DNA of 64,000 nt, from the NCBI GenBank assembly GCA_963676515.1, contig OY781061.1:660776-724775 (forward strand), in the 5' to 3' direction. The notes beneath the pieces were generated by a model. It had not been told where the DNA came from. It ran no database searches and saw only the letters and a list, made by a program, of their open reading frames with translations. This stretch comes from Candidatus Cloacimonadota bacterium. GTDB taxonomy: Bacteria; Cloacimonadota; Cloacimonadia; G963667145. How positions within the stretch are numbered: the stretch's first letter is position 1; each line of letters starts with the position of its first letter. Positions 1-53,612 of this stretch are shown piece by piece. The position numbers and the translations under genes were made by a program.

Positions 1-89
1 ACAAGGCGTGCGGTGAGCGGAAATGAGGGCTGGTGGTGTGCTTCCTTGCCTTGCTTCCCTCATCCCCGCGAAAGCGGGGATCCAAGGGC
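1..89. repeat. Tail of the 'BA' intergenic repeat unit (window-truncated copy). It reads acaaggcgtgcggtg...ctggtggtgtgcttccttgccttgcttccctcatccccgcgaaagcggggatccaagggc.
   Basis: Near-identical copies lie at 462-553, 40165-40253, 40870-40970 and 53330-53400. It contains a perfect 8-bp hairpin with a GAAA loop. Confidence 0.8.
62..81 (+). other. Hairpin ATCCCCGC-GAAA-GCGGGGAT (GNRA tetraloop), embedded in the BA repeat.
   Basis: Perfect 8-bp inverted repeat read directly from the sequence. Other copies lie at 527-546, 40221-40240, 40938-40957 and 53462-53481. Confidence 0.7.
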
Positions 90-127
90 AGGGATGGGTG
101 GGCTTCACCAGATTGTCAATTCAATAG

Positions 128-350
128 CCTTCGGCTGGACTCCATCTTTTCTTTGAACGCTCAACGAAAAGATAGAGGAGAAAAGAAAACCGCTCCGCTT
201 CAATCCGCCAGAGGGTTGCGTGAGGTGTTTACGGAGTTCCGTGGTGGAGAACACCTCCGAGATTTATTCTTAGCTGTGCATTTTCGATTGCTAGCTTTGC
301 AATGCCATAGATAAAGGTCTGTGTCTCTGGCTCTGCCCGTGAAGCGGAGG
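128..350. repeat. Repeat module 'D', copy 1 (~220 bp). The second copy is at 40415-40639.
   Basis: About 90% identical by eye to 40415-40639 (gctggactccatcttttctttgaacgctcaacgaaaagatagaggagaaaagaaaaccgctccgcttcaatccgccagag...ctctgcccgtgaagcggag). It contains several short internal stems. Confidence 0.8.
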
Positions 351-553
351 TAAGCCCCTACCCATTGATAGCATCGTGTGGGAGAATGGATTCCCGCTTT
401 CGCGGGAATGAGGGCTGGTGGCGATGCGGAGCTGGTGGTGAATAAACATACTGGCGGGTGGTGACACAAGGCGTGCGGTGTGCAGCTATGAGGACTGGTG
501 GTGTGCTTTCTTGCCTTGCTTCCCTCATCCTCGCGAAAGCGGGGATCCAAGGG
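351..553. repeat. 'BA' repeat unit copy. It contains the TTCCCGC-TTTC-GCGGGAA palindrome and the GNRA hairpin.
   Basis: Shares cattgatagcatcgtgtgggagaatggattcccgc...gcgggaatgagggctggtgg...gaataaacatactgg...acaaggcgtgcggtg...ctcatcctcgcgaaagcggggatccaagggc with 40057-40253, 40661-40970 and 53205-53400. Confidence 0.8.
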
Positions 554-644
554 CGAGAGTGAGTGGGAATGAGGGCTGGTGGCAATGCAAAGCAGGTGAT
601 GAGCAAATACAATGGCTGGTGGGAAAGTGATTACCTGCCTAAGC

Positions 645-1646
645 TCATAATGAGGGCTGAGTGGAGGCAAATCGCCAGGTATCGATACAGATTTGCTCCA
701 TTGTCCGTTTCGCTTTCCAATGCAGGTCTTGCATTGCCTTGCTGGAGTCTGCATAGCAGATAGCAATGTCGCCTGCTCTTCTAGGCTCTATTTTGTAAGG
801 GACTTTAACTCCTACCGCTTTTTCAAAAGTTTTGACTATTTGCAAAACAGACACACCTTGCCCTGTGCCCAAATTGTAAGTGTGCAGCCCTACCCCAAGT
901 TTTTGCAATGCGGCCAAATGCCCATCTGCCAAATCACAGACATGGATATAATCTCTAACTCCAGTACCATCTATAGTTGGATAATCATCACCAAATATGT
1001 TCAGAGACTCTCGCCAACCAATAGCCACCTGCCATACATAGGGCATCAAATTATTCGGGATGCCTTGTGGCAATTCGCCTATCAGCCCACTCTCGTGCGA
1101 ACCTACAGGATTAAAATAACGCAACAGAACAACTGACATACCGGGGGAAGAGTTGACAAAGTCGGTCAAAATCCTCTCGCCCATAGCTTTTGTCTCTGCA
1201 TAGGGGTTGGTTGTTGGTAATAGATCCATAGTTTCGGACATCGGAGAAACATTGTCACCATAAACAGTTGCTGACGAGCTAAATACAATTTTATTTACCT
1301 TGAATTTGTGGCACATTTTAGCCACAACCAAAGTAGCATTCAAATTGTTCTTATAATATTTCAAAGGTTGCTCAACGGAGACCCCTACTGCCTTATAGCC
1401 AGCGAAATGGATTACTGCAGCGAAATTGTGCTTCTCAAAGACAGCTTCCATTCGGGCACTATCCGTAACATCCACTTTATAGAAAGTAGGTCTTTTGCTC
1501 GTGATTTGCTCTATATTGTCTATTACCTTTGCGTGGCTATTGCATAGATTGTCGACAATTACCACTTCATACCCAGCCTGCAAAAGCACCACCGCAGTAT
1601 GCGAACCTATATAGCCGGTACCACCGGTAACTAATATTTTGTTCAT
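645..1646 (-). CDS. galE: UDP-glucose 4-epimerase (GalE).
   Basis: 333 aa. N-terminus MNKILVTGGTGYIGSHT, an NAD-binding Rossmann motif. YxxxK and overall GalE-like sequence throughout. Confidence 0.85.
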   Translation of the reverse strand: MNKILVTGGTGYIGSHTAVVLLQAGYEVVIVDNLCNSHAKVIDNIEQITSKRPTFYKVDVTDSARMEAVFEKHNFAAVIHFAGYKAVGVSVEQPLKYYKNNLNATLVVAKMCHKFKVNKIVFSSSATVYGDNVSPMSETMDLLPTTNPYAETKAMGERILTDFVNSSPGMSVVLLRYFNPVGSHESGLIGELPQGIPNNLMPYVWQVAIGWRESLNIFGDDYPTIDGTGVRDYIHVCDLADGHLAALQKLGVGLHTYNLGTGQGVSVLQIVKTFEKAVGVKVPYKIEPRRAGDIAICYADSSKAMQDLHWKAKRTMEQICIDTWRFASTQPSL

Positions 1647-29255: not shown

Positions 29256-29588
29256 TTATCGGCAAAACTGAAGATCCGCCTTAACTTCTTGGATTTCTTT
29301 GTGCAACTCGTTATACTCAAGTTCCTTAATTTGCAAAAAAGCTTTAGTTATTCTCATTTTTTCTGTTATCCCTATCGGTGTTAACACATAAAGATAATTA
29401 CTCTTATTATCACTTTCGGCAAAATTGTGTAGTTTTAGAAATCCTTTCTTCCCAAGTTCCTTAAGTAAAAAATTCACTTTGCCCAAACTGAAACCTAAGC
29501 TATGAGCTAAAGACCTTTGGTTATGGTGTGGCTCTCTTTCTATTGCACTCAAAACCTTATAACTATTTTCTATTTCATTCTTGTTCAT
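29256..29588 (-). CDS. Small winged-helix DNA-binding protein (MarR/PadR-like). First gene of the polysaccharide operon.
   Basis: 110 aa. HNQRSLAHSLGFSLGKVNFLLKELGKKGFL resembles a wHTH recognition helix plus wing. Function inferred only from position. Confidence 0.45.
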   Translation of the reverse strand: MNKNEIENSYKVLSAIEREPHHNQRSLAHSLGFSLGKVNFLLKELGKKGFLKLHNFAESDNKSNYLYVLTPIGITEKMRITKAFLQIKELEYNELHKEIQEVKADLQFCR

Positions 29589-29703
29589 GGGTTGAACGAA
29601 AAAGGAAAGTATTTAATGTCAATAAAAAGTCTTCATAATAAAAAATGAGAGCAAAGAAATCCTCCGCTTACTACCAGAACTCTCTGGATGGTAAATGCTG
29701 AAC

Positions 29704-29740
29704 ATAAAAAAAGTGGACACGAACTCTATCGTATCCACTT
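29704..29740 (-). terminator. Rho-independent terminator of giant gene 1 (module E variant).
   Basis: On the minus strand: AAGUGGAUACGAUAGAGUUCGUGUCCACUU followed by U7. Lies 30 bp past the stop codon. Confidence 0.75.
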
Positions 29741-29770
29741 CTTCTTTAAAATTTACTTTTCATATATAAT

Positions 29771-32700
29771 TTAAAAAGGTTTATAAGAATCCCACCATTT
29801 TTCAGCACCCAAGTCATAGTTAGCATACCTTTCTTCATCAAGACTAGTTAGCTTACTCTTCCAACCACTAAGGTTTATATTGAAAGCTTTAGCAAACATA
29901 AACATAGCACTCATCCATTCAACATTGCCTACATTCCAAGCAGAAATATTACCATTAAATTTCGTTGCCCCAGCAAACATATAATTCATATTGGTGACAC
30001 TGTCTACATCCCAAGAGTTTAAATCCTTATTAAAAGCTTTTGCTCCATCAAACATATAACTCATATTGGTAACGCTACTAACATCCCAGCCATTAATGTC
30101 GCCGTTAAACATGGTATCATTAAAAAACATAAAGCTCATATTTGTAACACTGCCTACTTCCCAAGAATTCAAATTCTGATTAAAAGTTTCTGCTCCGGAA
30201 AACATATGAAGCATATTTTCAACTTTACTTACATTCCAATTAGAAATATTACTATTAAATAAAATTGCATTAGAAAACATACCTTGCATAGTCTGCACAT
30301 TGCTCACATCCCAGCCACTGATATCCCCATTAAATTCCTTAGCTCCACTAAACATATAATTCATAATCGTTACATTGCTTACATCCCAGCCACTGATATC
30401 TTGATTGAATGTTGAATCACTACTAAATAAAGATTCCATATTAGTGATCCCAGCTGTATTGACCTGAGTGACATCATCGCGATCGGCTATCATAGCTTTC
30501 AAGGTGTTTAGCGTGATATATGTCGTGGCACTGTCGATACTGGAGAAAGCAGATTGCCCAGCGTCGCTATAAGCTGCTATTTTGTAGAAGCGTTTGCTGT
30601 TTTCACTGAGGCTGGTGATGCTGTAGTTGGAGACAAGCCCCACGGTTGTCGTGTCATAGCTCCCTTCACTACTGGTGGCTGTACACAGGTAATAACCTGT
30701 AGCTCCAGCGACTTCGCTCCAAGATATGTCTATTTGTGTAGGGCTCGCGGCACTATCGGACAAAATGGTAGGAGTAGCAACAATTGTGGTAACACTTACG
30801 CTATCAGAAAGACTGGATGTATCCACAGCGTTATAAGCTTGGATCTTGTAAAAATGCTTGGAGTTGGCATTAAGTCCTTTGTTTTGGTAAATGATGTCAT
30901 CAATATCACCGATTGGACTGAAATTTTCACCACTAGAGTCTGCATGATATATCGTGTATCCTTCTGCCCCGCTAACTTTGTCCCACGATATGTCTATTTG
31001 GGAAAAGCTCTTGGCTTCCGCAAAAACATTGGCAGGAGCGTTTACATTTATTTTCCCTATTACAACTGCAGAGAAATCGGATACACCGCGTCCATGATAG
31101 GATCGTACCTTGTAATAATACTCTGTGTCTGAATTGAGTCCCATGCTGCTGTAGAATGTATCGGTTCTAACAATTGAGTCGCCATAGTGCTCTCCATCGT
31201 CTGATATGTAGAGATAATAGCCATCTGCTCCCGCGGCTGTGCTCCACGATATTCTTATTTGGGAAGAGTCTACCGCACTCGCCTTTAGGTCAGCTGGAGC
31301 GGCGACAATCGTGGTGTCGCTCAATATGTCAGAGAAAACGCTGTAACCGTTGCCGTTGTAAGCCTTCAGCTTGTAAGTGTAGACTGTGTAAGCGGAAAGC
31401 CCTGTGTCGCTGTAAGAGTTGCTACTGATGTCGCCAACACTACCGTATTCTCCATTAGTGGTATCTAATCGATAAATCTTGTATCTGGCTGCTCCAGGGA
31501 CGGTGTCCCATCGCAAATCTATGCGTGATGCACTAACGACACTGCTCTCAAGATTGCTCGGAGCTAAGACGATTGTGGTGTCGCTTATTCCGCTGGAGAA
31601 CGCACTGTAACCGCTACCATTATAAGCCTTCACCTTGTAAAAGTACTCTGTGTTTGCGGCGAGTCCTGTGCTGTAATAAGTGGTGCTATTGGTGTCGCCG
31701 ATTGAAATGTAGTCTCCACTAATGGTATCTAATCGGTATATTGCATAGCTGGTTGCTCCAGCGACTGCGTGCCAACTCAGGTTTATCTGTGATGCACTCA
31801 CGACACTGTCGGTGAGATTCGTGGGAGACGCGACAATCGTGAAAATCCTCAATGTGTCGGAGAAATCACTATAGCCTTTCGTATTATGAGCACTCACTCT
31901 GTAGAAATACTTCGTGTTTGCAGTGAGACCTGTGTCGCTGTAGGTGGTGACATTCCCCAAAGTTGTGTCGCTGTATGTCCGCCCGCTGTCTACAGAGAAC
32001 GAGAGGCGATAGCCTGCCGCTCCATCTACTTCGCTCCATTTCAAATCTATGCGTGAAGCACTCACGACGCTGTCGGTGAGATTGCTCGGAGCTAAGACGA
32101 TTGTGGTGTCGCACAATATGTCGGAGAAGGCACTATTGCCTTTCCCGTTACGGGCTAACACCTTGTAGTAATGCACACTGTTTGCAGCGAGTCCTGTGTC
32201 GCTGTAGGAAGTGTCATTGCCAAGAATTGTGTCGCTGTAAGCAGTGCCATCTTCTGAGTAAGAGAGAGAATAGCTCGTTGCTCCATCGACTGTGTTCCAA
32301 AACAGCTTTATCTGTGATGAACTAATGACACTGTCGGTGAGGCTCTTAGGAGCATCAATAATCGTTGTGTCGCTCACGGTGTTCGAGAAAATACTGTAGC
32401 CGTTGTTATTATAAGCTAGTACCTTGTAGGAATAGACGGTGAAAGCGGAAAGCCCTGTGTCGCTGTAAGAATTGCTATTGGCAACACCAACACTGTCGTA
32501 GTCTCCACTAGTGGTATCTAATCGGTAAATCTTATAGCTGGCTGCTCCAGGAACGGTGTCCCATCGCAAATCTATGCGTGAAGCACTGACGACGCTGTCG
32601 ACAAGGTTAGCAGGAGCGGCAACGATTGTGGTGTCGCACAATATGTCGGAGAAGGCACTATTGCCTTTCCCGTTACGGGCTAACACCTTGTAGTAGTGCA

Positions 32701-35700
32701 CACTATTTGCAGTGAGTCCTGTGTGGCTATAGGTGGTGACATTGCCCAATGCTGTGTCGCTGTAGTTTGTGCCATCGCCTGAGTAAGAGAGAGAATAGCT
32801 CGTTGCTCCATCGACTGAGTTCCAAAACAGTTTTATCTGTGATGAACTAATGACACTGTCGGTGAGGCTCTTAGGAGCATCGACAATCGTGGTATCGCTC
32901 AATATGTCAGAGAATTCACTGTCGCCATTTCCATTGTAAGCTAAAACTTTGTAATAATGCACACTATTTGCAGCGAGTCCCTTGTCGCTGTAGGTGGTGA
33001 CATCCCCCAAAGTTGTGTCGCTGTATGTCCGCCCGCTGTCTATAGAGAACGCGAGGCGATAGCCTGTCGCTCCCTCTACTTCGCTCCATTTCAAATCTAT
33101 GCGTGACGCACTGACGACGCTGTCGGCTAGATTACTCGGAGCTGCGACGATTGTGGTGTCACTCAATGTGCCGGAGAATTCGCCAAAGCCTTTTGTATTA
33201 TAGGCTCGCACTTTGTAGAAATACTCTGTGTTTGCGGTGAGCCCTGTGCTGTAATAAGTGGTGCTATTGGTGTCGCCGATTGAAATATAGTCTCCACTAA
33301 TGGTATCTAATCGGTATATTGCATAGCTGGTTGCTCCAGCGACTGTGTTCCAAAACAGTTTTATCTGTGATGAGCTGATGACACTGTCGGTGAGGTTGCT
33401 CGGAGCATCGACCTTCGTGGTGTCGCTCAATGTGTCAGAGAATTTGCTTTCGCCGTTGTTATTATAAGCTAGTACCTTGTAGGAATAGACGGTGTAAGCG
33501 GAAAGCCCTTTGTCGCTGTAGGAGTTGATACTGGCAACGCCAACACTGTCGTATTTTTTACTAGTGGTGTCTAATCGGTAAATCTTGTAGCTGGCTGCTC
33601 CGGGGACGGTGTCCCATTTCAAATCTATCTGTGACGCACTCATGACACTGTCACTGAGGTTGCTCGGATGTGTGACGATTGTGGTGTCGCTTATTACGCT
33701 GGAGAACGCACCGAAGCCTTTTGTATTATAGGCTTGCACCTTGTAGAAATACTCTGTGTTTGCGGTGAGTCCTGTGCTCAGATAATTAGTTTCATTGGTT
33801 GCTCCGATTTTGTTGTCGCCTACATTTATAATTGTGTCCCTATAAATATAATAGCTATCTGCACCAGCGACTGTGTTCCAGTATAGATTTATCTGTGACT
33901 TACTCACGACACTGTCGGTGAGGTTGCTCGGAGCATCGACAATAGTGGTGTCGCTCAATATGTCAGAGAAAATACTATAGCCGTTGCCATTGTGAGCCTT
34001 CAGCTTGTAGAAGTAAGCTGTGTTAGCGGAGAGGTTTTCGATACTAAATGTGGTGCCATCTGTTGTTTCTTTTCGGTCATAATTTCCGCTTATAATTGTG
34101 TCTATATAAACGACATAGCCTGCCGCTCCCTCTACTTCGCTCCAGCTCAAATCTATGCGTGAAGCACTAACGACGCTGTCGGTGAGATTCCTTGGAGGTG
34201 CAACGATTGTGGTGTCGCACAATGTGCTAGAGAACTCTCCGTCGCCTTTGCCATTGTAGGCTAGCACTTTGTAGTAGTGCACGCTATTTGCGAAAAGTCC
34301 TGTGTCGCTGTAGAAAGTGTCGGTTGCCTCTTTCATTGAAGCATATGCTCCATCGCTGATTGTGTCCATGTAGACATAATAGCCAGATGCACCAGCGACT
34401 GTGTTCCAGAAAAGTTTTATCTGTGATGCACTGATGACACTGTCGGTGAGGTTGCTCGGAGCATCGACAATAGTGGTGTCGCTCAATATGTCAGAGATTT
34501 CACTGTCGCCATTGTTATTATAAGCTAGTACCTTGTAGGAATAGACGGTGTTCGCACTGAGGCTTTCGATACTAAAGACGGTGTCTTCTGCGTTCTCTTC
34601 TCGGGTATAGTTCCCATCTCCACTTGTGTCTATATAAACGACATAGCCTGCCGCTCCATCTACTTCGCTCCATTTCAAATCTATGCGTGAAGCACTCACG
34701 ACACTGTCGGTGAGATTGCTCGGAGCTAAGACGATTGTGGTGTCGCTTATTACGCTGGAGAACGCACCGAAGCCTTTTGTATTATAGGCTAGCACCTTGT
34801 AGAAATACTCTGTGTTTGCGGTGAGTCCTGTGCTCAGATAAATAGTGTCATCGGTTGCCCCGATTTTGTTGTCGCCTACATTTATAACTGTGTCCCTATA
34901 AATATAATAGCTATCTGCACCAGCGACTGTGTTCCAATATAGATTTATCTGTGACTTACTCACGACACTGTCGGTGAGGTTGCTCGGAGCGGCGACAATC
35001 GTGGTATCGCTCAATATGTCAGAGAATTCACTGTCGCCATTGTTATTATAAGCTAGTACCTTGTAGGAATAGACGGTGTAAGCGGATAGCCCTGTGTCGC
35101 TGTAGAAATTGCTACTGATGTCGCCAACACTACCGTATTCTCCATTAGTAGTATCTAATCGGTAAATCTTGTAGCTGGCTGCTCCAGGGACGGTGTCCCA
35201 TTGCAAATCTATGCGTGACGCACTGACGACGCTGTCGGTGAGATTGCTCGGATGTGTGACGATTGTGGTGTCGCTTATTACGCTGGAGAACGCACCGAAG
35301 CCTTTTGTATTATAGGCTTTCACCTTGTAGTAATGCACACTGTTTGCGGCGAGTCCTGTGTCGCTGTAGGTGGTGACATTGCCAAGAATTGTGTCGCTGT
35401 AAGCAGTGCCATCTTCTGAGTAAGAAAGAGAATAGCTCGTTGCACCAGCGACTGAGTTCCAATATAGATTTATCTGTGATTTACTCACGACACTGTCGGT
35501 GAGGTTGCTCGGAGCAGCAACCTTCGTGGTGTCGCTCACGGTTTTCGAGAAAATACTGTAGCCGTTGCCATTATAAGCCTTCAGCTTGTAAGAATAGACT
35601 GTGTAAGCAGTGAGACCTGTGTCGCTGTAGGTGGTGACATTCCCCAAAGTTGTGTCACTGTATGTCTGCCCGCTGTCTATAGAGAACGCGAGGCGATAGC

Positions 35701-38700
35701 CTGCCGCTCCCTCTACTTCGCTCCATTTCAAATCTATCTGTGACGCACTGACGACACTGTCGGTGAGATTTCTCGGAGCTAAGACGATTGTGGTGTCGCT
35801 CAGTACGCTAGAGAACTCTCCGTTGCCTTTGCCGTTGTAGGCTAGCACTTTGTAATAGTGCACACTATTTGCGGCGAGACCTGTGTCGCTGTAGGAAGTG
35901 TCATTGCCAAGAATTGTGTCGCTGTAAGCAGTGCCATCTTCTGAGTAAGAGAGAGAATAGCTCGTTGCTCCATCGACTGTGTTCCAGAACAGCTTTATCT
36001 GTGATGAACTAATGACACTGTCGGTGAGGCTCTTAGGAGCATCGACCTTCGTGGTGTCGCTCAATATGTCAGAGAATTCACTGTAGCCGTTGCCATTGTG
36101 AGCCTTCAGCTTGTAGAAGTAAGCTGTGTTAGCGGAGAGACCTGTGTCGCTGTAGGAGTTGATGCTGGCAACGCCAACACTGTCGTAACCTCCTCCAATG
36201 GTGGTATCTCTATAAATTGTGTAGCTGGCTGCTCCAGGGACGGTGTCCCATTGCAAATCTATGCGTGACGCACTCACGACACTGTCGGTGAGGTTGCTCG
36301 GATATGTGACGATTGTGGTGTCGCTTATTACGCTGGAGAACACACCGAAGCCTTTTGTATTATAGGCTTGCACCTTATAGAAATGCACACTATTTGCGAA
36401 AAGACCTGTGTGGCTGTAGGTGGTGACATTGCCCAATGCTGTGTCGCTATAGTTTGTGCCATCGCCTGAGTAAGAGAGAGAATAGCTCGTTGCACCAGCG
36501 ACTGAGTTCCAAAACAGTTTTATCTGTGATGAACTGATGACACTGTCGGTGAGGGTGCTCGGAGCGGCGACCATCGTGGTGTCGCTCAATATGTTAGAGA
36601 ATTCACTGTCGCCATTTCCGTTGTAAGCTAAAACTTTGTAGTAATGCACACTATTTGCAGCGAGTCCCTTGTCGCTGTAGGTGGTGACATCCCCCAAAGT
36701 TGTGTCGCTGTATGTCTGCCCGCTGTCTATAGAGAACGCGAGGCGATAGCCTTTCGCTCCATCAACTGCGTTCCATCTCAAATCTATTTGTGATGCACTA
36801 ACGACGCTGTCGGTGAGATTGCTCGGATGTGTGACGATTGTGGTGTCGCTCAGTGTGCTAGAGAACTCTCCGTTGCCTTTGCCATTGTAGGCTAGCACTT
36901 TGTAATAGTGCACGCTATTTGCGGCGAGTCCTGTGTCGCTGTAGGTGGTGACATTGCCCAATGCTGTGTCGCTGTAGTTTGTGCCATCGCCTGAGTAAGA
37001 GAGAGAATAGCCGTCTGCTCCAGCGACTGTGTTCCAGAAAAGTTTTATCTGTGATGCGCTGATGACACTGTCGGTGAGATTCTTAGGAGCATCAACCTTC
37101 GTGGTGTCAAATAATATGCCAGAAAATTCGCTATTACCGTTACCATTGTAAGCCTTTAGCTTGTAAGTGTAGACGGTGTAAGCGGAAAGGGCTGTGTCGC
37201 TGTAGGAGTTGATACTGGCAACGCCAACACTGTCGTATTTTTTACTAGTGGTATTTAATCGGTAAATCTTGTAGCTGGCTGCTCCGGGGACTGTGTCCCA
37301 TTGCAAATCTATGCGTGACGCACTCACGACACTGTCACTGAGGTTGCTCGGAGCGGCGACGATTGTGGTGTCGCTTACGATGCTAGAAGCTTTACTCTCT
37401 CCGACTGTATTATAAGCTGTCACTTTGTAGAAATATTCTGTGTTTGCGGCGAGACCTGTGTTGCAGTAGGAAGTGCTACTGGTGTCAACTAATAAGTTGT
37501 TGCTGCCTACATTTCCCGTTGTGTCCATGTAAACTCTATAGCGTTCTGCTCCTTCCACTTCGTCCCACGATATGTCGATTCGGGAAGAGCTTTTGGATTT
37601 GGCGGATACATTCGTCGGAGCAGCGACGATCGTGAAGAGACTCAATGTGTCGGAGTAATCACTATAGCCTTTGTAATTGTAGGCTCGCACTGTGTAGAAA
37701 TACTTCGTATTTGCGTTGAGACCTGTGCTGTAGTAGAAAGTGTCCGTGCCGACAGAGGTGTCTATATAAGTTCGCCCGCTGTCTATAGAGTAAGAGACAT
37801 AATAACATGATGCACCATCGACTGAGCTCCAGAACAAGTTTATTTGAGAAGAGTCTACGACACTATCGCAGAAATTGGCAGGAGCGGCGACCATAGTGGT
37901 GTCGCACAATGTGTCCGAGAAGCCAGATTCCCCTGCGTCACTATAAGCTGTGACTTTGTAGGTATAGCTTGTGAAAGCGGTGAGTCCTGTGTCATTGCAA
38001 GAAGTAACCTCGCCAATAAGCGTATGCTTGTAATCGGCACTACTTGGGGATGAGCGATATATTGTGTAGCCATCTGCTCCCTCGACTGAGTTCCAAGATA
38101 AATTTATTTGTGATGCACTGATGACAATGTCGGCGAGACCAGTCGGAGCTAAGACCTTTGTGGTGATGATCAATGTGTCGGAAAATTCACTGTCGCCGTT
38201 GCCATTGTAAGCTAGTATTTTATAGTAATATTTACTATTTGCCGTGAGACCTGTGTCGCTGTAGGAAGTGACCTTCTCGATTGCTGTGTCGCAATAGTTA
38301 TTGCCATCGTCTGCAGATATATAGAGGCGATAGCCTGCTGCTCCATCGACTGCGTCCCATTGCAAATCTATCTGAGAAAAGCTGACGACAGTATCGGAGA
38401 AACCAGCTGGAGGTGCGACGATGGTGGTGTCGCTTGCGATGTTAGCGTAATCTATATTACTACTACCAGCTTTGTTAAAAGCTATTACCTTGTAAAAATA
38501 CTCGGTGTTTGCGGCAAGCTCATTGCTACGATAAGCGGTGTCAGCGGTCTCTCCAATTTTGGTGTAAGTCCCATTACTAAAGTTTGGTGACATGAATACT
38601 CTGTAGCTATCTGCTCCACTGACTACATCCCAAGACAAATCTATCTCTGAGGCGCTTATGGATTTGGCTGTTAGGTTTTCAGGGTTAGTTACATGTATTC

Positions 38701-39847
38701 TTCCTTTTACGATTTGGGAAAACTCGGATGTGTCCACAGCGTTATAGGCTTTTATTTTATAATAATACATTGTATCTGCAGAGGCAACTTTATGACTGTA
38801 AGAGGTGACATTCTCAATAGTTGTAGGGGAATAATTATTGCCATCGTCTGAGATATAGAGGTAATAGCCTGCCGCTCCACAAGTTACAGTCCAAGACAAA
38901 CCTATCTGTGTCGAGTTCAGAACTCTAAGTGAGAGCCCTTCTGGATCCAAGAGTTTTACTCTCGATTTTACGGTGGCAGAAAAGTCTGAACTCCTAGAGG
39001 ATCTATAAGCTTTTAGTTTGTAGGAATATTCTATGTGTGGATCGGACACTGTGTCCGTGTAAAAGAGAACATTGCCGACATCTATCTGAGCGTAAGCCTC
39101 AATGCTGGCAGTATCTTTGTAGAGAGTGTAGCCATCGGCACCATCGACAGCATCCCACGACAAAAATATTTGTGAAATACTTACAGCTTTAGCGGCTAAA
39201 TTGCTGGGAGCTGCGACTATCGTGGTGTCACCTGCGATGTTGGAATATTCACTCTCACCACTTTCGTTATACGCTTTCACCTTATAGAAACAAGCTGTGT
39301 TTGCCTTGAGTCCTGTGTTACTATAAAAATTGCTGTTGACATTTCCAATAGGGTTGTAAGCTCCGCCCAGCGAAGATGATTTGTATATTCTGTAGTTTGC
39401 TTCTCCACTCACTGCGTTCCATGATAAATCTATTCGAGAAGAGCTTATAGCTTTTGCCGTTAGGTTGGTAGGAGTGGAAACAATCGTGATGGCACTTACG
39501 ATATCGGAAAATTCGCTATAACCATCAGCATTATAAGCTGTCACTTTGTAGTAATATTTTGTGTTTGCACTAAGCCCCGTGCTGGAACATAAATTGCTAC
39601 TGACATTGTTAATTTCGCTGTAATCTCCATCAAGAGCTGTTGCTTGGTGTACTTTATAACCTGTGGCTGTGCTCACGACATACCAAGACAAATCTATTTG
39701 CGAAGAATCTACGACAGTCGCCTCTAGATTGGTAGGAGCAGCTGGGAGAATCAGTTCCTCTGCATCGTCGTTTCCAGAAGGGCTGGTGCAGGTGACGAAA
39801 ATGACCAAGCTAAATATGATCGCTAAAAGTTTGAAACAATTCTTCAC
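29771..39847 (-). CDS. Giant surface lipoprotein. Signal peptide with lipobox, then about 30 tandem fibronectin-type-III-like modules, then a C-terminal block of 25-residue BspA/DUF285-type LRR repeats (~7 copies, 29771-30500).
   Basis: ORF 29771-39880 in the track. A GTG at 39847 is preferred as the start. It is preceded by AGAGGA 7 nt upstream and gives MKNCFKLLAIIFSLVIFVTC, parallel to paralog 2 (MKNWLKILVIIFSSVVFVTC). The repeats carry FN3 hallmarks (P-x-L...W...Y-x-[VI]-Y...Y-x-Y-x-V-x-A-x-N). The C-terminus is FNQDISGWDVSNVTIMNYMFSGA x7. Confidence 0.8.
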   Translation of the reverse strand: MKNCFKLLAIIFSLVIFVTCTSPSGNDDAEELILPAAPTNLEATVVDSSQIDLSWYVVSTATGYKVHQATALDGDYSEINNVSSNLCSSTGLSANTKYYYKVTAYNADGYSEFSDIVSAITIVSTPTNLTAKAISSSRIDLSWNAVSGEANYRIYKSSSLGGAYNPIGNVNSNFYSNTGLKANTACFYKVKAYNESGESEYSNIAGDTTIVAAPSNLAAKAVSISQIFLSWDAVDGADGYTLYKDTASIEAYAQIDVGNVLFYTDTVSDPHIEYSYKLKAYRSSRSSDFSATVKSRVKLLDPEGLSLRVLNSTQIGLSWTVTCGAAGYYLYISDDGNNYSPTTIENVTSYSHKVASADTMYYYKIKAYNAVDTSEFSQIVKGRIHVTNPENLTAKSISASEIDLSWDVVSGADSYRVFMSPNFSNGTYTKIGETADTAYRSNELAANTEYFYKVIAFNKAGSSNIDYANIASDTTIVAPPAGFSDTVVSFSQIDLQWDAVDGAAGYRLYISADDGNNYCDTAIEKVTSYSDTGLTANSKYYYKILAYNGNGDSEFSDTLIITTKVLAPTGLADIVISASQINLSWNSVEGADGYTIYRSSPSSADYKHTLIGEVTSCNDTGLTAFTSYTYKVTAYSDAGESGFSDTLCDTTMVAAPANFCDSVVDSSQINLFWSSVDGASCYYVSYSIDSGRTYIDTSVGTDTFYYSTGLNANTKYFYTVRAYNYKGYSDYSDTLSLFTIVAAPTNVSAKSKSSSRIDISWDEVEGAERYRVYMDTTGNVGSNNLLVDTSSTSYCNTGLAANTEYFYKVTAYNTVGESKASSIVSDTTIVAAPSNLSDSVVSASRIDLQWDTVPGAASYKIYRLNTTSKKYDSVGVASINSYSDTALSAYTVYTYKLKAYNGNGNSEFSGILFDTTKVDAPKNLTDSVISASQIKLFWNTVAGADGYSLSYSGDGTNYSDTALGNVTTYSDTGLAANSVHYYKVLAYNGKGNGEFSSTLSDTTIVTHPSNLTDSVVSASQIDLRWNAVDGAKGYRLAFSIDSGQTYSDTTLGDVTTYSDKGLAANSVHYYKVLAYNGNGDSEFSNILSDTTMVAAPSTLTDSVISSSQIKLFWNSVAGATSYSLSYSGDGTNYSDTALGNVTTYSHTGLFANSVHFYKVQAYNTKGFGVFSSVISDTTIVTYPSNLTDSVVSASRIDLQWDTVPGAASYTIYRDTTIGGGYDSVGVASINSYSDTGLSANTAYFYKLKAHNGNGYSEFSDILSDTTKVDAPKSLTDSVISSSQIKLFWNTVDGATSYSLSYSEDGTAYSDTILGNDTSYSDTGLAANSVHYYKVLAYNGKGNGEFSSVLSDTTIVLAPRNLTDSVVSASQIDLKWSEVEGAAGYRLAFSIDSGQTYSDTTLGNVTTYSDTGLTAYTVYSYKLKAYNGNGYSIFSKTVSDTTKVAAPSNLTDSVVSKSQINLYWNSVAGATSYSLSYSEDGTAYSDTILGNVTTYSDTGLAANSVHYYKVKAYNTKGFGAFSSVISDTTIVTHPSNLTDSVVSASRIDLQWDTVPGAASYKIYRLDTTNGEYGSVGDISSNFYSDTGLSAYTVYSYKVLAYNNNGDSEFSDILSDTTIVAAPSNLTDSVVSKSQINLYWNTVAGADSYYIYRDTVINVGDNKIGATDDTIYLSTGLTANTEYFYKVLAYNTKGFGAFSSVISDTTIVLAPSNLTDSVVSASRIDLKWSEVDGAAGYVVYIDTSGDGNYTREENAEDTVFSIESLSANTVYSYKVLAYNNNGDSEISDILSDTTIVDAPSNLTDSVISASQIKLFWNTVAGASGYYVYMDTISDGAYASMKEATDTFYSDTGLFANSVHYYKVLAYNGKGDGEFSSTLCDTTIVAPPRNLTDSVVSASRIDLSWSEVEGAAGYVVYIDTIISGNYDRKETTDGTTFSIENLSANTAYFYKLKAHNGNGYSIFSDILSDTTIVDAPSNLTDSVVSKSQINLYWNTVAGADSYYIYRDTIINVGDNKIGATNETNYLSTGLTANTEYFYKVQAYNTKGFGAFSSVISDTTIVTHPSNLSDSVMSASQIDLKWDTVPGAASYKIYRLDTTSKKYDSVGVASINSYSDKGLSAYTVYSYKVLAYNNNGESKFSDTLSDTTKVDAPSNLTDSVISSSQIKLFWNTVAGATSYAIYRLDTISGDYISIGDTNSTTYYSTGLTANTEYFYKVRAYNTKGFGEFSGTLSDTTIVAAPSNLADSVVSASRIDLKWSEVEGATGYRLAFSIDSGRTYSDTTLGDVTTYSDKGLAANSVHYYKVLAYNGNGDSEFSDILSDTTIVDAPKSLTDSVISSSQIKLFWNSVDGATSYSLSYSGDGTNYSDTALGNVTTYSHTGLTANSVHYYKVLARNGKGNSAFSDILCDTTIVAAPANLVDSVVSASRIDLRWDTVPGAASYKIYRLDTTSGDYDSVGVANSNSYSDTGLSAFTVYSYKVLAYNNNGYSIFSNTVSDTTIIDAPKSLTDSVISSSQIKLFWNTVDGATSYSLSYSEDGTAYSDTILGNDTSYSDTGLAANSVHYYKVLARNGKGNSAFSDILCDTTIVLAPSNLTDSVVSASRIDLKWSEVDGAAGYRLSFSVDSGRTYSDTTLGNVTTYSDTGLTANTKYFYRVSAHNTKGYSDFSDTLRIFTIVASPTNLTDSVVSASQINLSWHAVAGATSYAIYRLDTISGDYISIGDTNSTTYYSTGLAANTEYFYKVKAYNGSGYSAFSSGISDTTIVLAPSNLESSVVSASRIDLRWDTVPGAARYKIYRLDTTNGEYGSVGDISSNSYSDTGLSAYTVYTYKLKAYNGNGYSVFSDILSDTTIVAAPADLKASAVDSSQIRISWSTAAGADGYYLYISDDGEHYGDSIVRTDTFYSSMGLNSDTEYYYKVRSYHGRGVSDFSAVVIGKINVNAPANVFAEAKSFSQIDISWDKVSGAEGYTIYHADSSGENFSPIGDIDDIIYQNKGLNANSKHFYKIQAYNAVDTSSLSDSVSVTTIVATPTILSDSAASPTQIDISWSEVAGATGYYLCTATSSEGSYDTTTVGLVSNYSITSLSENSKRFYKIAAYSDAGQSAFSSIDSATTYITLNTLKAMIADRDDVTQVNTAGITNMESLFSSDSTFNQDISGWDVSNVTIMNYMFSGAKEFNGDISGWDVSNVQTMQGMFSNAILFNSNISNWNVSKVENMLHMFSGAETFNQNLNSWEVGSVTNMSFMFFNDTMFNGDINGWDVSSVTNMSYMFDGAKAFNKDLNSWDVDSVTNMNYMFAGATKFNGNISAWNVGNVEWMSAMFMFAKAFNINLSGWKSKLTSLDEERYANYDLGAEKWWDSYKPF

Positions 39848-39914
39848 TTTTATTCCTCTATTTCCAAAACAATTTCCCAAATAATGTCAACTTTGTTACA
39901 CTTTTGGAATTTGT

Positions 39915-39922
39915 CAAATATA
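39915..39922 (-). promoter_or_regulatory. Candidate promoter element TATATTTG(ACAA) (minus strand), 68 bp upstream of the giant gene 1 start.
   Basis: The same TA(A/T)ATTTGACAA motif sits at an equivalent distance (66 bp) upstream of giant gene 2 (52193-52200). It matches the TAnnTTTG (-7) consensus of Bacteroidota and also contains a TTGACA hexamer. Confidence 0.35.
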
Positions 39923-40056
39923 GTTATGGATTTTTAACTGAAAAATCAAAACAAGTTTGAAAGAGCAGAGCAAAAGTGTCTAGGATTTGGGGTTCATATC
40001 AGGATGTAAGGAAACAGAAACCGCAGATAGACACAGATGACTACAGATGACTGCCC

Positions 40057-40253
40057 CTTTTGTGCATCGTGTGGGAGAATGGATTCCCGCTTCCGCGGGA
40101 ATGAGGGCTGGGTGGCGATGCAGAGCTGGTGGTGAATAAACATACTGGCTGATGAAGGCACAAGGCGTGCGGTGTGCAGGAATGGGGACTGGTGGTGTGC
40201 TTCCTTGCCTTGCTTGCCTCATCCTCGCGAAAGCGGGGATCCAAGGGCGGGTG
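40057..40253. repeat. 'BA' repeat unit copy.
   Basis: Contains the TTCCCGC-TTCC-GCGGGAA palindrome, two Chi-like GCTGGTGG octamers and the GNRA hairpin at 40221-40240. Confidence 0.8.
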
Positions 40254-40384
40254 TAAACACCAGCAGAAATTTTGCGTCTTCAGCGTGCGAGGTAGGTTTA
40301 GATTTTAGATTTCGGCTTTGGTTTTTTGACTGTATGCTTTGTTTCGTATGCATTCCCAAGCTGGAGCTTGGGAACGAGGGGAAA
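40254..40384. repeat. 'C' repeat module copy.
   Basis: cagcagaaattttgcgtcttc...tttgactgtatgctttgtttcgtatgcaTTCCCAAGCTGGAGCTTGGGAAcgagggg. Copies lie at 40971-41099 and 52410-52530, with a variant at 53040-53200. Confidence 0.8.
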
Positions 40385-40414
40385 TCCCTCTGATAAGAGA
40401 AGATACCTGCTTTT

Positions 40415-40639
40415 TAGCTTTCAGCTGGACTCCATCTTTTCTTTGAACGCTCAACGAAAAGATAGAGGAGAAAAGAAAACCGCTCCGCTTCAATCCGCCA
40501 GAGAGATGGCGTGAGGTGTGTAGGCTGTCCGTGGTGGAGAGCACCTCCGATATTTGTTCTTAGCTGTGCATTTTCAATTGCTGGCATTGCAGTGCCATAG
40601 ATAAAGGTCTGTGTCTCTGGCTCTGCCCGTGAAGCGGAG
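40415..40639. repeat. Repeat module 'D', copy 2.
   Basis: About 90% identical to 128-350. Confidence 0.8.
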
Positions 40640-40660
40640 AAATTCCCCATCCTAGCTAGC

Positions 40661-40970
40661 AGGTAAGACCGCCCTTCCCTACCCATTGATAGCATCGTGT
40701 GGGAGAATGGATTCCCGCTTCCGCGGGAATGAGGGCTGGTGGCGATGCAGAGCTGGTGGTGAATAAACATACTGGCTGATGAAGGCACAAGGCGTGTGGT
40801 GTGCAGGAATGGGGACTGGAGGGAACACAGAGGAGACAGTAACCGCAGATGGACACAGATGAGGGCGGGTGGTGACACAAGGCGTGCGGTGTGCAGGAAT
40901 GGGGACTGGTGGTGTGCTTCCTTGCCTTGCTTGCCTCATCCTCGCGAAAGCGGGGATCCAAGGGCGGGTG
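40661..40970. repeat. 'BA' repeat unit copy with an internal ~48-bp partial duplication (40821-40868).
   Basis: Aligns to 40057-40253 except for the inserted segment gggaacacagaggagacagtaaccgcagatggacacagatgagggcgggtggtgac, which is itself related to 40012-40050. Confidence 0.75.
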
Positions 40971-41099
40971 CTAAACACCAGCAGAAATTTTGCGTCTTCG
41001 GCGTGCGGATCGTTTAGAATTTAGCTTACAGCTTTGGTTTTTTGACTGTATGCTTTGTTTCGTATGCATTCCCAAGCTGGAGCTTGGGAACGAGGGGAA
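40971..41099. repeat. 'C' repeat module copy.
   Basis: Aligns to 40254-40384. Palindrome at 41069-41090. Confidence 0.8.
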
Positions 41100-41137
41100 A
41101 AAAATCCTTGCTGCCCAAACAGAAATGAACGAAGCAT

Positions 41138-41173
41138 AAAAAAAGTGAACACGGTCTCTAGTCGTATCCACTT
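41138..41173 (-). terminator. Rho-independent terminator of giant gene 2 (module E).
   Basis: Hairpin agtgaacacggtctctagtcgtatccact with an A7 run on the + strand (U-tract on the minus strand), about 20 bp past the stop codon. Near-identical copy at 53567-53603. Confidence 0.75.
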
Positions 41174-41192
41174 CTTCTTCTAAATTTAAAAT

Positions 41193-44100
41193 CTAGTCAC
41201 TAAAGTAAGGTTGATAATACACATTCCACGCTGGATAAGTATTGAGAGAAAAACTATCGTGACTGGTTACCTTGCTCACATCCCAATTTCCAAGATTTTG
41301 GAAAAAGAGTTTTGCTCCGTTAAACATATGAGCCATATCTGTGACACTACTCACATTCCAATCACTGATGTCTTGGTTAAAAATATATGCAGAAAAAAAC
41401 ATCTTAACCATTTTTGTGACACTACTCACATTCCAACCACGGATGGGTTGGTTAAAAGCATATGCATTACTAAACATATAACTCATGTCTGTGACATTGC
41501 TTACATCCCAATAATTTATGTTTTGGTTAAATGCTTCAGCCTGACAAAACATATTTTTCATAGTGGTGACATTATATACATGCCAACTACCTATGTGTTT
41601 GTTAAAAGAAAGTGCCTTATAAAACATATAACTCATATCTGTGACATTCTTTGTTTCCCAGAAATTTAAGGTTTGGTTAAAAGAAGTTGCACTATAAAAC
41701 ATATAACTCATATCTTTAACATTGCTTACATCCCAACCACCTATGTCTTGGTTAAAAGCACCTGCATAATAAAACATATAACTCATATCTTTGACATTGC
41801 TTACGACCCAACCACCTATGTCTTGGTTAAAAGCACTTGCACCATAAAACATTTGATTCATATCAGTAACATTGCTCACATCCCAACCACTGATATCTTG
41901 ATTGAATGTTGTGTTATTTAAAAACAAGCTAGACATATCTGTAATCATGCCTGTATTTACTTCGCTAACATCATTATCAGCAGTTATCCTAGCCCGCAAA
42001 ACAGTTTTCGAGATATATGGCTTTTTGTATACGGCAGTAGAGTAGTCAGATAGCCCTGCATCGCTATAAGCTTTCACTTTGTAATAATAATTTTGGGTTA
42101 CTCCAATCCCTGTGTCGTCGTAGGTGGTGCTAGTGACACTAGTAATTAACTCATAAGAATCATAGAGAGAGGTTGCTCGGTATATGTTGTATTTTGTAGC
42201 TCCACTGACTGAGTTCCAAGATAAGTCTATTTGCTCAAAGGTTGTAGTTTTAGCTGATAAATTAGTCGGAGCGAGCACATTCGTGGTGACACTCAATAAG
42301 TTAGAATACCCACTTTCGCCGTTTGCATCGCAAGCTGTTACTTTGTAATAATAGGTTGTATTGGCGGAGAGTCCTTTGCTCGCGCCAGACTCGCTAGTGA
42401 CACTAGTGACATAAGTGTCAGGTCCACCACTAGAGGTTGATCTGTATATCTTGTAGCTAGTGGCACCGGCAACTGAGCTCCAGCTCAGGGTTATTTGAGA
42501 AGAGCTGGAATAATCTTTAGCTAGATTGATGGGAGCTGCCAGAATCGTGGTCGCACTTACTTGGCTAGAACTCTCAGATTCCCCTACATCACTGTAGGCT
42601 GTCACCTTGTAGTAATAGGTTGTGCTCACACTGAGCCCTGTGTTAGAGTAAGACTCGCTACTGACACTAATTAGGAGAGTGAGAGTCTCACCACTAGAGG
42701 TTGACCTGTATATCTTGTAACCTTTTGCTCCTGCGACTTTGCCCCACGATAAGTTTATTTGTGAAGAGTTCGTGGCTGTAGCAGAGAAACCCGTGGGAGC
42801 GGCGACGATAGTGGTAGCACTCACCGTGTCGGAGTATTCACTGTTGCCATTTGTGTTGTAGGCTCGCACTGTGTAGAGGTACTCTGTGCCTGCACTGAGC
42901 CCTGTGCTGTGGCAGAGAGTGTCTGTGACAATTTCAGTTTTGAGGTAACTCCCATCGCTATCTAGTCGGTCAACTTTGTAACCTGTAGCTCCTGCGACTG
43001 AGTCCCACGCTATGTCTATCTTAAAGGAGCTGATGACATTACTGGTGAGGTTAGTAGGTGCTAAGACTATCGTGGTGTCCTTCAGGATGTCAGAGTAATC
43101 CGATTCCCCTGCATCATTCTGGGCAGTCACTTTGTAATAATACTCCGTATTTGCAGTGAGCCCTGTGTCGCTGTAAGAGGTGTCCATGCCCACAGCTGTG
43201 TCGAGATAATCTACACCATCTGCAGAGTAATAGAGGCAATAGCTCGTCGCACCAACGACTGAGTCCCATCGCAAATCTATGCGTGATGCACTGACGACGC
43301 TGTCGGTAAGATTGGCTGGAGCTAAGACTCTAGTGGTAGCAATCAGTGTGTCGGAGTATTCGCCATCGCCCTTCGCATTGCGAGCCTTCACCTTGTAATA
43401 GTACTCTGTGTTTGCGGCTAGCCCTGTGCTGTAGTAGGTGGTAACAGTCGTATCGCCAATCTTGGCATACTCTCCATCACGAGAGGGTGCTCGGTATATT
43501 GCGTAGCTCGTCGCTCCAGCGACTGCCTCCCAGCTCAAATCTATGCGTGATGAGCTAAATGCACTGCTGGTGAGGTTAGCAGGAGCTGCGACCATCGTGG
43601 TGTCTGTGAGTATGGCAGAGTATTGACTATAGCCGCCTACATTGTGTGCCCTCACTTTGTAATGATACACCGTGTAAGCTGTGAGTCCCGTGTCGCTGTA
43701 GGAGGTGACATCGCCCACTGCTGTGTCGCTGTAGTGTGTGCCATCTGTGGAGTAAGAGAGGTAATAGCTCGTCGCACCAGCGACTGCCTCCCATTTCAAA
43801 TCGATGCGTGACTCGCTCACGACACTGTCGGTGAAATTGGCAGGAGCGAGGAAAATCGTGGTATCGCTCACTACGCTGGAGAATACGGACTCTCCAGAAG
43901 CACTGTAAGCTAGCACCTTGTAAGAGTAGACTGTATTTGCCGTGAGCCCTGTGCTGTAGTAGGGGGCATCGCTGGTATCGCCGATTTCGCTGTAAGTTCC
44001 ATCACTCTGTAATTGGTGTATGCGATAACCTGTCGCTCCCTCGACTTCGCTCCAAGCTATGTCAATTTGGGAAGAGCTAGTGGCAGTAGCAGAAACGGTA

Positions 44101-52127: not shown

Positions 52128-52192
52128 TTTTTCCTTCTCTTTTTAAAAAAATCCCAAGTTAAGTTCCACAGTACTAGACTTTTAAAAGTTGT

Positions 52193-52200
52193 CAAATTTA
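52193..52200 (-). promoter_or_regulatory. Candidate promoter element TAAATTTG(ACAA), 66 bp upstream of the giant gene 2 start.
   Basis: Shared motif and spacing with 39915-39922. Confidence 0.35.
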
Positions 52201-52309
52201 GAAGTAATTTTTTCTCTAAAAAAGACAAAAATGAGCTTGGAATTTCACTGAAAAAAAGAAAAGAGGATTTTATTCACAAATAAAAAATAGTAGTTAAAAT
52301 GGGACACCG

Positions 52310-52390
52310 CCCTTTCCTGCCCATTGAAGGCATCGTGTGGGGGAATGGATTCCCGCTTCCGCGGGAATGAGGGCTGGTGGGAACGCAAGG
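52310..52390. repeat. Head fragment of the 'BA' unit.
   Basis: cattgaaggcatcgtgtgggggaatggattcccgcttccgcgggaatgagggctggtgg. Confidence 0.7.
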
Positions 52391-52409
52391 CGAGTGGTGA
52401 GCGGAGAAC

Positions 52410-52530
52410 TGTAGAGACGCAAAATTTTGCGTCTTCGGTGTGCGGGGTTGGTTTAGAATTTAGCTTTCGACTTTGGTATTTTGACTGTATGCTTTGTTTC
52501 GTATGCATTCCCAAGCTGGAGCTTGGGAAC
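52410..52530. repeat. 'C' repeat module copy.
   Basis: Contains an 18-bp perfect palindrome GACGCAAAATTTTGCGTC (52416-52433) and TTCCCAAGCTGGAGCTTGGGAA (52508-52529). Confidence 0.8.
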
Positions 52531-52544
52531 GAGGGGAAAGGGGA

Positions 52545-52610
52545 CTGCCCTGCCCTGCCCCTTTTGTGCATCGTGTGGGAGAATGGATTCCCGCTTCCGC
52601 GGGAATGAGG
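52545..52610. repeat. Head fragment of the 'BA' unit.
   Basis: ctgccctgccccttttgtgcatcgtgtgggagaatggattcccgcttccgcgggaatgagg. Confidence 0.7.
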
Positions 52611-53039
52611 ATGAAAAACTAAAACCTGAAAAACTTACCTATTACTGTGGTTTCTCTTACCAGAGTGGTTTTCATTTTTCTTTTGTAACCAAAGGAAAAA
52701 CCGAAACAAAAAGAAAAGTTCCTTTTGGCATAAACTCGCTATAAGGGCGGCGAGAGGAGAGTGAGGCAAACCAACGGAGTAGAGCTCCTTCCGTGTAATG
52801 TCCATAAGCTTTGTTGTTATCTGGAGGTGTCGTCTGACGGTGAATAGATACTGGTTTTTTCTTATGCTCAAACTTATGCCAAAAGTGATACCACCCAGCC
52901 CCAGAGCGTGCTAAGGGGAAAGTTGGGCTAGCAAATACTTAAAGCAGGAAGCGTGAAATTCGTTAACCGCCCAGAGCTACGCTGACGACGAAGTGCTATA
53001 TCACCTATAAAATGACAGATGAGATTCATAGCACGAGGC

Positions 53040-53200: not shown

Positions 53201-53204
53201 GAAA

Positions 53205-53603: not shown

Positions 53604-53612
53604 ATTTAAAAT

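Follow-up and report, generated by a model that had tools for sequence, protein, structure and literature searches.

A low-GC polysaccharide operon probably embedded in the spacer system of a giant FN3-DUF285 gene array of a Cloacimonadota bacterium

The window analysed here is a 64,000-nucleotide stretch of Candidatus Cloacimonadota DNA (contig OY781061.1, positions 660,776 to 724,775) from a chromosome of 1,581,858 bp that belongs to a small-genome clade of the phylum. It holds a polysaccharide operon of low GC content and a tandem array of giant genes whose products carry FN3 domains and DUF285 repeats. Judged by the order of sequence modules, the operon appears to fill the slot between a terminator (module E) and the (C)-A-B-D-A part of the canonical spacer that sets the giant genes apart, an arrangement that we consider well supported. 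Architecture and comparative composition together provide good support for the operon being an island embedded in the spacer system. That it entered a spacer by insertion and has a further giant gene on its left is plausible, with one independent piece of support in the paralog P0366 described below. For the reading as a whole, a variable surface region in which the operon occupies a spacer slot of the array and an FN3-DUF285 gene lies to the left, the balance of evidence tips slightly in favour.

The minus strand carries all genes of the window, counting those open reading frames (ORFs) of at least 150 aa that are plausible as genes. Transcription runs from giant gene 3 through spacer S3, giant gene 2, spacer S2 and giant gene 1, then across a 114-bp gap to a regulator gene, the operon and finally S0, the repeat block at bases 1-644. 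Giant gene 1 (29771-39847, minus strand, GTG start at 39847) encodes 3358 aa and matches the database protein P0364 exactly; it has a signal peptide, about 30 FN3 domains and C-terminal DUF285/BspA-type repeats (Pfam). Giant gene 2 (41193-52127, minus strand; 3644 aa, with 34 FN3 domains plus DUF285 by Pfam) is an exact match to P0363, and giant gene 3 (53613-64000, minus strand) contributes more than 3461 aa to the window, its 5′ end lying past the right edge. Protein identities of 52.6% (1 vs 2), 64% (2 vs 3) and 45% (1 vs 3) identify the three as paralogs. The DUF285 family (PF03382) scores 311 and 314 bits for giant genes 1 and 2, against a curated cut-off of 25, and the best database homologs of the giant-gene C-terminus, none longer than ~1216 aa, are named ‘BspA family leucine-rich repeat surface protein’. 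The products are probably lipoproteins.

The tandem paralogs are set apart by spacers of 1.3-1.5 kb, each of which leads from terminator E through a mosaic of short GC-rich palindromic modules (A, B and C), sometimes with D, into an AT-rich promoter region. Read in the direction of the genes, S2 (39848-41192) has the order E-C-A-x-partial A-B-D-C-A-B-x-AT-rich promoter region, and S3 (52128-53612), which is without D, has the order E-A′-A-B-long C-unique part-B′-C-B-promoter region. The canonical order is giant gene-E-C-A-(x)-B-D-C-A-B-promoter-giant gene. Around the operon it is giant gene 1-E-(regulator and operon)-B″-A-B-D-A-(window end).

Bases 1-644 are a paralogous copy of the core (A-D-B-A) of such a spacer, as the initial annotation had proposed. 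Pairwise alignment goes further than that proposal: throughout the module series A-(C)-D-B-(x)-A, S0 (1-567) and S2 (40160-40970) are collinear, with ~91-95% identity in the shared blocks. Relative to S2, S0 has four deletions; among the missing stretches are module C, of ~150 nt, a piece of 31 nt where D and B meet, and partial A together with x (~90 nt). Comparison of the four intergenic blocks with the window by blastn resolves the individual modules. The A copy at 1-102, cut by the left window edge and containing the palindrome ATCCCCGC-GAAA-GCGGGGAT, matches 40160-40251 (91%), 40877-40968 (91%) and 53330-53410 (93%); a further copy at 466-567 is 95% identical to 40864-40966, and the five window copies of A are 88-95% identical. 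Module D, said in the initial annotation to occur only twice, is indeed found by an nhmmer profile in exactly two full copies, both on the minus strand: copy D0 at 349-120 (E 9e-66), collinear with 40411-40639, and copy D1 at 40639-40411 (E 6e-65). Module B lies at 357-461, with the hairpin ATTCCCGCTTTCGCGGGAAT and an exact ATTCCC-N8-GGGAAT at 390-409, and the D plus B stretch 125-501 matches 40415-40822 at 85% over 409 columns (E 1e-136). The two blocks part beyond the last A copy: S2 leads through C and E to the giant gene 2 stop, and S0 through 75 nt of partial B-like sequence to the stop of galE, with which the operon ends. By blastn, this partial module, B″ (565-622), matches the latter half of the B copies at 81-82% identity; it abuts the galE stop codon at 645.

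The other half of the slot is marked by module E, which the initial annotation had correctly placed on the far side of the operon at the stop of giant gene 1. It lies at 29703-29755 (minus strand), where a 17-bp hairpin followed by U7 folds with -23.4 kcal/mol (z -6.2), and has blastn homologs at 41135-41188 and 53558-53608. Hairpins of 16-17 bp followed by a U-run stand directly past all three giant-gene stops (z -3.2 to -6.2), which makes the E modules intrinsic terminators; a simple terminator consensus scan missed these modules, which were recognised by folding. A second terminator-like hairpin at 29650-29668 was set aside, as its folding is not significant (z -0.8). The upstream region of ~110 bp ascribed to the operon has the right length, the gap to E being 114 bp, but this gap is measured from a 110-aa regulator gene (29256-29588) that precedes the operon.

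Composition separates the operon from its surroundings. The GC contrast originally noted by eye is upheld by exact GC and GC3 (GC at third codon positions) values: the operon genes have 30.8% GC and GC3 of 0.217, and the giant genes 45.6-47.1% GC and GC3 of 0.47-0.49 (0.484 overall). The range of 50-60% GC given for the spacers fits S0 (54.2%) but not S2 (39881-41192, 48.9%) or S3 (52128-53612, 46.3%) overall, although their repeat-rich parts are higher. The window is without a core gene, and backbone composition was taken from relatives. The source FtsH (P0244) is 92.8% identical to that of the genome carrying locus L108 (1,555,846 bp), 89% to that of the genome carrying L107 (1,563,548 bp) and 86% to that of OY762940.1, a ‘Candidatus Cloacimonadota bacterium’ (1,587,896 bp); the next matches are at 73% and thereafter at no more than 63%, several of the lower ones being labelled Cloacimonetes or Cloacimonas. 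Core genes have GC3 of 0.40-0.63 in four relatives with 86-93% identical FtsH. Since giant-gene GC3 falls within this range and operon GC3 below it, we infer that the operon is the compositional outlier and that the giant genes match the clade backbone, the backbone of the source being read from its relatives. Of the two directions of horizontal acquisition that the initial annotation had left open, operon or giant genes, the comparison with relatives thus points to the operon, with the same dependence on those relatives for the backbone.

Low-GC polysaccharide loci are common, and the one in OY762940.1 has GC3 of 0.16-0.27. Within the window operon, galE (GC3 0.43) is unlike the other genes and may be native or ameliorated; its product, P0001, is 68% identical to its best relatives. 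A single 90%-identity cluster holds both the galE of OY762940.1 (L105 10001-11002) and that of an unrelated, flagellated lineage of ~30% GC (L001 10001-11008, L106 10001-11008); of the two contigs of this lineage, one is from the same sample as OY762940.1. Because the cluster is common to OY762940.1 and an unrelated lineage, polysaccharide genes do move horizontally in this setting, and the shared cluster points to recent transfer of such genes. A native GC of ~30% for the source, suggested by the galE relatives L001 and L106 (~30% GC throughout, with flagellar genes), was rejected, as the FtsH search puts those genomes outside the source clade. The ~30%-GC lineage also encodes an FlgE of 1447 aa (L001 15746-20089, L106 15782-20125); usual flagellar hook proteins are believed to be far shorter. 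A separate compositional pattern runs within the giant genes (29771-63998), with GC3 of 0.46-0.60 in the FN3 repeat core vs 0.34-0.39 at the N-terminal and DUF285 ends, which may stem from repeat-driven homogenisation or biased gene conversion.

If the order of S2 is a guide, a B module, a promoter and another FN3-DUF285 gene would follow to the left of the window, and we judge the chance of such a gene directly left of position 1 to be modestly better than even. The obvious candidate would be P0366, a fourth FN3-DUF285 paralog of 2302 aa with 18 FN3 stretches and a DUF285 score of 587 bits. A 50%-identity representative library, searched with the first 300 aa of giant gene 2, yielded it as the one further protein of this architecture besides P0363 and P0364 themselves. 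P0366 is encoded on the source chromosome but outside the window, no part of which matches it better than 42-45%. Over its N-terminal 150 aa, P0366 is 51.6% identical to giant gene 1 vs 42.5% to giant gene 2; over its C-terminal 60 aa, the values are 58% for giant gene 1 and 40-43% for giant genes 2 and 3. The tail ...SYKPF is common to P0366 and giant gene 1. Its termini are thus closest to giant gene 1, as expected of a former neighbour in the tandem array; this sequence evidence is indirect and does not fix its place on the chromosome.

Module D looks like a conserved structured non-coding element of ~230 nt that occurs in variable regions and is without an Rfam match, which would make it a candidate new element of its kind. 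By blastn, L107 has three close copies, 79-84% identical to those in the window, as well as three divergent full-length copies (D′), and L108 has one copy. The ~47 kb of sequence with DUF285 clusters hold seven full copies; in ~106 kb of clade sequence outside such clusters there is no full copy and one partial 3′ fragment, in L114. No D was found in ~0.7 Mb of loci from other lineages, and scans of Joint Genome Institute (JGI) metagenome and viral collections with D cores gave zero, zero and one chance match inside a coding region. In the window, Rfam returned no match for D or the spacers at the gathering threshold, and at E ≤ 1 only chance snoRNA-like matches outside D.

Five helices are kept via compensatory changes across the D copies, a sample that is small, with about four independent lineages. 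P1 pairs CUCCGCUUCA with UGAAGCGGAG in the window copies and changes U:A to C:G in L108. P2 (GCCAGAG/CUCUGGC) changes C:G to G:C in L108 and A:U to U:A in D′, with a U-G in one copy, and P4 (GAGGUG/CACCUC) changes G:C to A:U in L107. P5, a long 3′ hairpin, has two length forms, and P6 is a 4-bp hairpin that occurs as AGCC/GGCU, AGCU/AGCU, CACC/GGUG and UGCU/AGCA. The helices were read by hand from an hmmalign alignment, which was used instead of a covariance model and MAFFT because both mis-registered the P1 5′ arm in the L107 copies, where a 24-26-nt insertion follows the arm. The indels of D are not multiples of three, and D is thus not coding. Folding energy is alike on both strands (z -3.3 on the gene strand vs -4.0 on the other), and G-U vs A-C cases weakly favour the gene strand, 3 to 1. 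Of the three close D copies in L107, two precede DUF285 genes of the same orientation, by 133 and 313 nt. The long module C (~270 nt) of S3 (52933-53204) is 72-74% conserved at L107 14433-14648 and L108 1139-1391, where it adjoins the D copies, and may be a second conserved non-coding element.

Several observations weigh against the placement of the operon by insertion into a spacer of the array. Among the relatives reached there is none with an uninterrupted spacer here or with the same operon elsewhere. A tRNA search revealed no tRNA at the island, and Pfam scans of all operon ORFs and of giant genes 1 and 2 recognised no integrase or transposase (the ORFs of at least 150 aa outside these scans overlap operon genes, giant genes or repeats). 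The borders at 540-760 and 29560-29790 share no word of 8 nt or longer. Of the classical marks of an integrative island, then, deviating composition is present, and an integrase, a tRNA or att target and direct repeats at the borders are not. The claim that the island was inserted into a spacer consequently stands for the arrangement, with E and A-D-B-A flanking the operon, and not for the event. P0366 is placed on the chromosome as a whole, the sequence read starts at position 1, and the backbone GC of the source derives from relatives.

The modules themselves raise a further difficulty, for they are 91-97% identical in DNA while the giant genes that they flank are 45-64% identical in protein. 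Modules so much more alike than the flanked genes are homogenised, by gene conversion, or have spread recently; they are not passive relics of gene duplications, and this weakens any argument for a split spacer that rests on age. Moreover, the cores of A, B and C, short perfect palindromes in an inverted-repeat search, are generic. The 26-mer GGATTCCCGCTTYCGCGGGAATGAGG of module B, present in the window at 384-413, 40077-40106, 40705-40734, 52343-52372, 52581-52610 and 53247-53276, occurs verbatim in more than 103 loci (those listed are L002-L104), which among the matches listed come from many phyla, including Dehalococcoidia, Pseudomonadota, Actinomycetota, Binatia and bacteria of the candidate phyla radiation (CPR) and also Gracilibacteria, Peribacteria and Verrucomicrobiia, with many copies in some genomes, such as OZ243973.1 and ESF1.bin.113. 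These loci share only ~30-60 nt with the window, i.e. the hairpin alone. The A, B and C hairpins also sit in ordinary intergenic DNA of OY762940.1, where an FMN riboswitch (111 bits; L090 2103-2229) lies beside generic hairpin repeats. Hairpins alone are therefore uninformative about the giant-gene array. D is likewise an unreliable marker of a downstream DUF285 gene: in L108 it is followed by convergent genes, S3 does without it, and at L114 114-180 a D′-like 3′ part lies 240 nt upstream of a DUF1329 gene. This fragment consists of the P1 3′ arm, a hairpin and GCCCUCCGCAGGAG, and its 5′ part differs; the sequence of its hairpin departs from the other copies yet can still pair.

The generic hairpins, the near-identity of the modules beside diverged giant genes (a pattern better suited to mobile or homogenised elements than to split-spacer relics) and the loose association of D with its downstream genes are all expected if S0 is one more dispersed cluster of repeats resembling repetitive extragenic palindromic (REP) sequences or Neisseria intergenic mosaic elements (NIMEs). 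The array would then end at giant gene 1, the operon would merely lie beside it and an ordinary gene would lie to the left. We regard this as the foremost competing explanation and as a real possibility, albeit a doubtful one. What matches S2, however, is an ordered series A-D-B-A of 560 nt, not isolated hairpins, and unlike lone hairpins it does speak for the giant-gene array. The confinement of full D copies to sequence with DUF285 clusters (seven in ~47 kb vs zero in ~106 kb outside them) also runs counter to a dispersed repeat, as does a fourth paralog on the chromosome that is most like giant gene 1.

The DUF285 gene family occupies a hot spot of the clade, as judged from gene order in relatives. 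In L107 and L108, the interval from atpB to a conserved block (a 254-aa gene, HhH-GPD, hydrolase, LptD, MlaD and FtsH) is taken up by DUF285 clusters whose spacers bear D, and in OY762940.1 and a relative of 1.54 Mb the same gap holds a single Big_2/FGE-sulfatase gene. The gap spans L107 1651-14656, L108 1-14055, L109 17184-18972 and L112 17188-18950, and a JGI short-read contig of the clade breaks at this gap between atpB and the 254/255-aa gene (end of L114). Such variability of the DUF285 clusters would also suit a native polysaccharide locus beside which the giant-gene array and its GC-rich spacers landed as incoming DNA, and in three other genomes the polysaccharide locus ends with galE beside non-repeat genes (GT2 plus flagellar genes, or asd). 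We nevertheless find this unlikely. Giant-gene GC3 (0.48) is within the core range of the clade and that of the operon (0.22) outside it, and L108 and L107, the closest relatives by FtsH, have the same gene family together with D and long-C modules, which makes the giant-gene system old in the subclade. An assembly artefact that joined a low-GC segment of another organism at the repeats is highly improbable. In its favour, the GC steps are sharp at both borders, the borders lie beside repeats, and metagenome assemblies with relatives of the source also contain a ~30%-GC lineage whose galE and CapE are similar. Against it, the low-GC genomes do not have these repeats beside galE, the operon proteins are only 33-75% identical to those of that lineage, the two borders share no sequence, and OY762940.1 likewise has a polysaccharide locus of low GC that adjoins a core gene.

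We thus return to reading the window as a variable region for the cell surface in a bacterium with a small genome (1.58 Mb). The 29-kb operon was probably acquired horizontally. Homologous recombination at the repeat blocks or adjoining sequences is the most likely way in which it arrived or was exchanged; site-specific integration is unlikely. Recombination through or beside the repeat blocks seems the most economical route.

The operon itself comprises ~25 co-directional polysaccharide genes including galE, spanning 29236-645. The galE-like UDP-glucose 4-epimerase gene (645-1646, minus strand; assigned by Pfam, with the source protein P0001 100% identical) is preceded by ~24 polysaccharide-synthesis genes (1728-29236, minus strand) recognised by Pfam scans and composition, with GC of 24-35%. 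At the head of the operon, the regulator gene noted above (minus strand) encodes a winged-helix protein of the MarR/HTH_24-like type (Pfam). The Pfam content, typical of a surface-polysaccharide cluster, includes a WecA-like GT4 (PF00953), four GT1 genes, an EpsG/Wzy-like polymerase (PF14897), CapE/F/G-like proteins, two DegT aminotransferases, RmlA/B-like proteins, a UDP-glucose dehydrogenase, a pyruvyl transferase and an AT3-SGNH acyltransferase. The locus may therefore encode a Wzy-type polymerase and, with weaker support, a flippase, for which the candidate is a 506-aa protein with a weak MatE match only (E 4e-4). Neither Wzz nor Wza was recognised in the operon by the Pfam scans.

Two short motifs recur around the array. 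There are 16 copies of the E. coli Chi octamer GCTGGTGG vs 1.0 expected; 12 of them lie in repeat blocks, all on the plus strand (29-36, 414-421, 431-438, 575-582, 615-622, 40125-40132, 40735-40759, 52373-52380 and 53295-53422); the copies belong to a G-rich sub-repeat of ~17-20 nt in modules A and B. An AT-rich motif around TTTGACAA, found by eye, lies upstream of giant genes 1 and 2 (39883-39917 and 52188-52193) and of both L107 DUF285 genes (~2700 and ~9930), and may be a putative -35 box of the giant-gene and DUF285 promoters.

So, which known systems does the window resemble? In the NIMEs of N. meningitidis, dRS3 inverted repeats flank RS elements; these arrays have been proposed to favour the exchange of genes beside them and, on the chromosome, to take up acquired genes that are themselves flanked by arrays (PMC1797815). 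This array-mediated insertion is the very scenario of the initial annotation. The window is similar in having non-coding arrays of many short repeat modules that flank surface-protein genes, and the B hairpin fits the dRS3 pattern ATTCCC-N8-GGGAAT exactly (six matches vs 0.01 expected, all in spacer blocks, although these are copies of one module and not independent). It differs in its host, a member of the Cloacimonadota by its FtsH relatives, and in that only one of the three palindrome types fits dRS3. In NIMEs, dRS3 copies flank RS elements of 50-150 bp in regular dRS3-RS-dRS3 arrays; in the window, other palindromes lie between the B hairpins, namely the A type ATCCCCGC..GCGGGGAT and the C type TTCCCAAGCT..AGCTTGGGAA; neighbouring B hairpins are 240-660 nt apart, a mosaic and not a regular dRS3 array. 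No recombinase or phage targeting dRS3 was seen among the window ORFs. Because the 26-mer occurs in many phyla, the likeness may be that of a generic hairpin and need not mean homology with Neisseria.

The REP sequences and bacterial interspersed mosaic elements (BIMEs) of Enterobacteria are short, GC-rich, imperfect palindromes that form mosaics between convergent or co-directional genes, often past stop codons. The window modules share the clustering of GC-rich palindromes into mosaics between genes, but they are longer (~100 nt) and ordered, and no RAYT-type transposase was seen. O-antigen and capsule clusters are low-GC, serotype-variable cassettes between conserved flanks. The window operon is similar in being a long operon on one strand with genes for sugar nucleotides, glycosyltransferases and Wzy-like and flippase-like proteins, in having a GC well below that of the backbone, and in its gene content, which varies between relatives while CapE/F/G-like genes and galE are conserved; here, however, one flank consists of the repeat blocks of a giant-gene array, not of housekeeping genes. 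The giant proteins themselves resemble BspA/DUF285 proteins in their C-terminal 25-residue repeats (311-314 bits), but place ~30-34 FN3 domains ahead of the repeats, in proteins of 3300-3600 aa, and are encoded in tandem with conserved spacers.

A bolder proposal by analogy, to which we attach rather little credence, is that the mosaic spacers, at least one hairpin type of which occurs verbatim across a dozen phyla among the matches listed, are a NIME-like recombination system outside Neisseria, with portable pads that would swap giant genes and the 29-kb operon and with D, of which there are three subfamilies and several copies per locus, as its structured RNA or single-stranded DNA (ssDNA) component. 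Should the operon indeed sit in a spacer of the array, this uncultured lineage would gather its two main surface determinants, giant adhesin-like lipoproteins and polysaccharide, in one recombination-prone region founded on repeat blocks, comparable to the NIME arrays of Neisseria. The left flank would then be predicted to hold the P0366 gene, and a mechanism of surface variation in one pathogen genus (Neisseria) would extend to a distant environmental phylum. Overall, what the window combines is familiar in kind, namely NIME/REP-like arrays around surface genes and a polysaccharide cassette of low GC; what is new is the phylum and, possibly, the structured element D.

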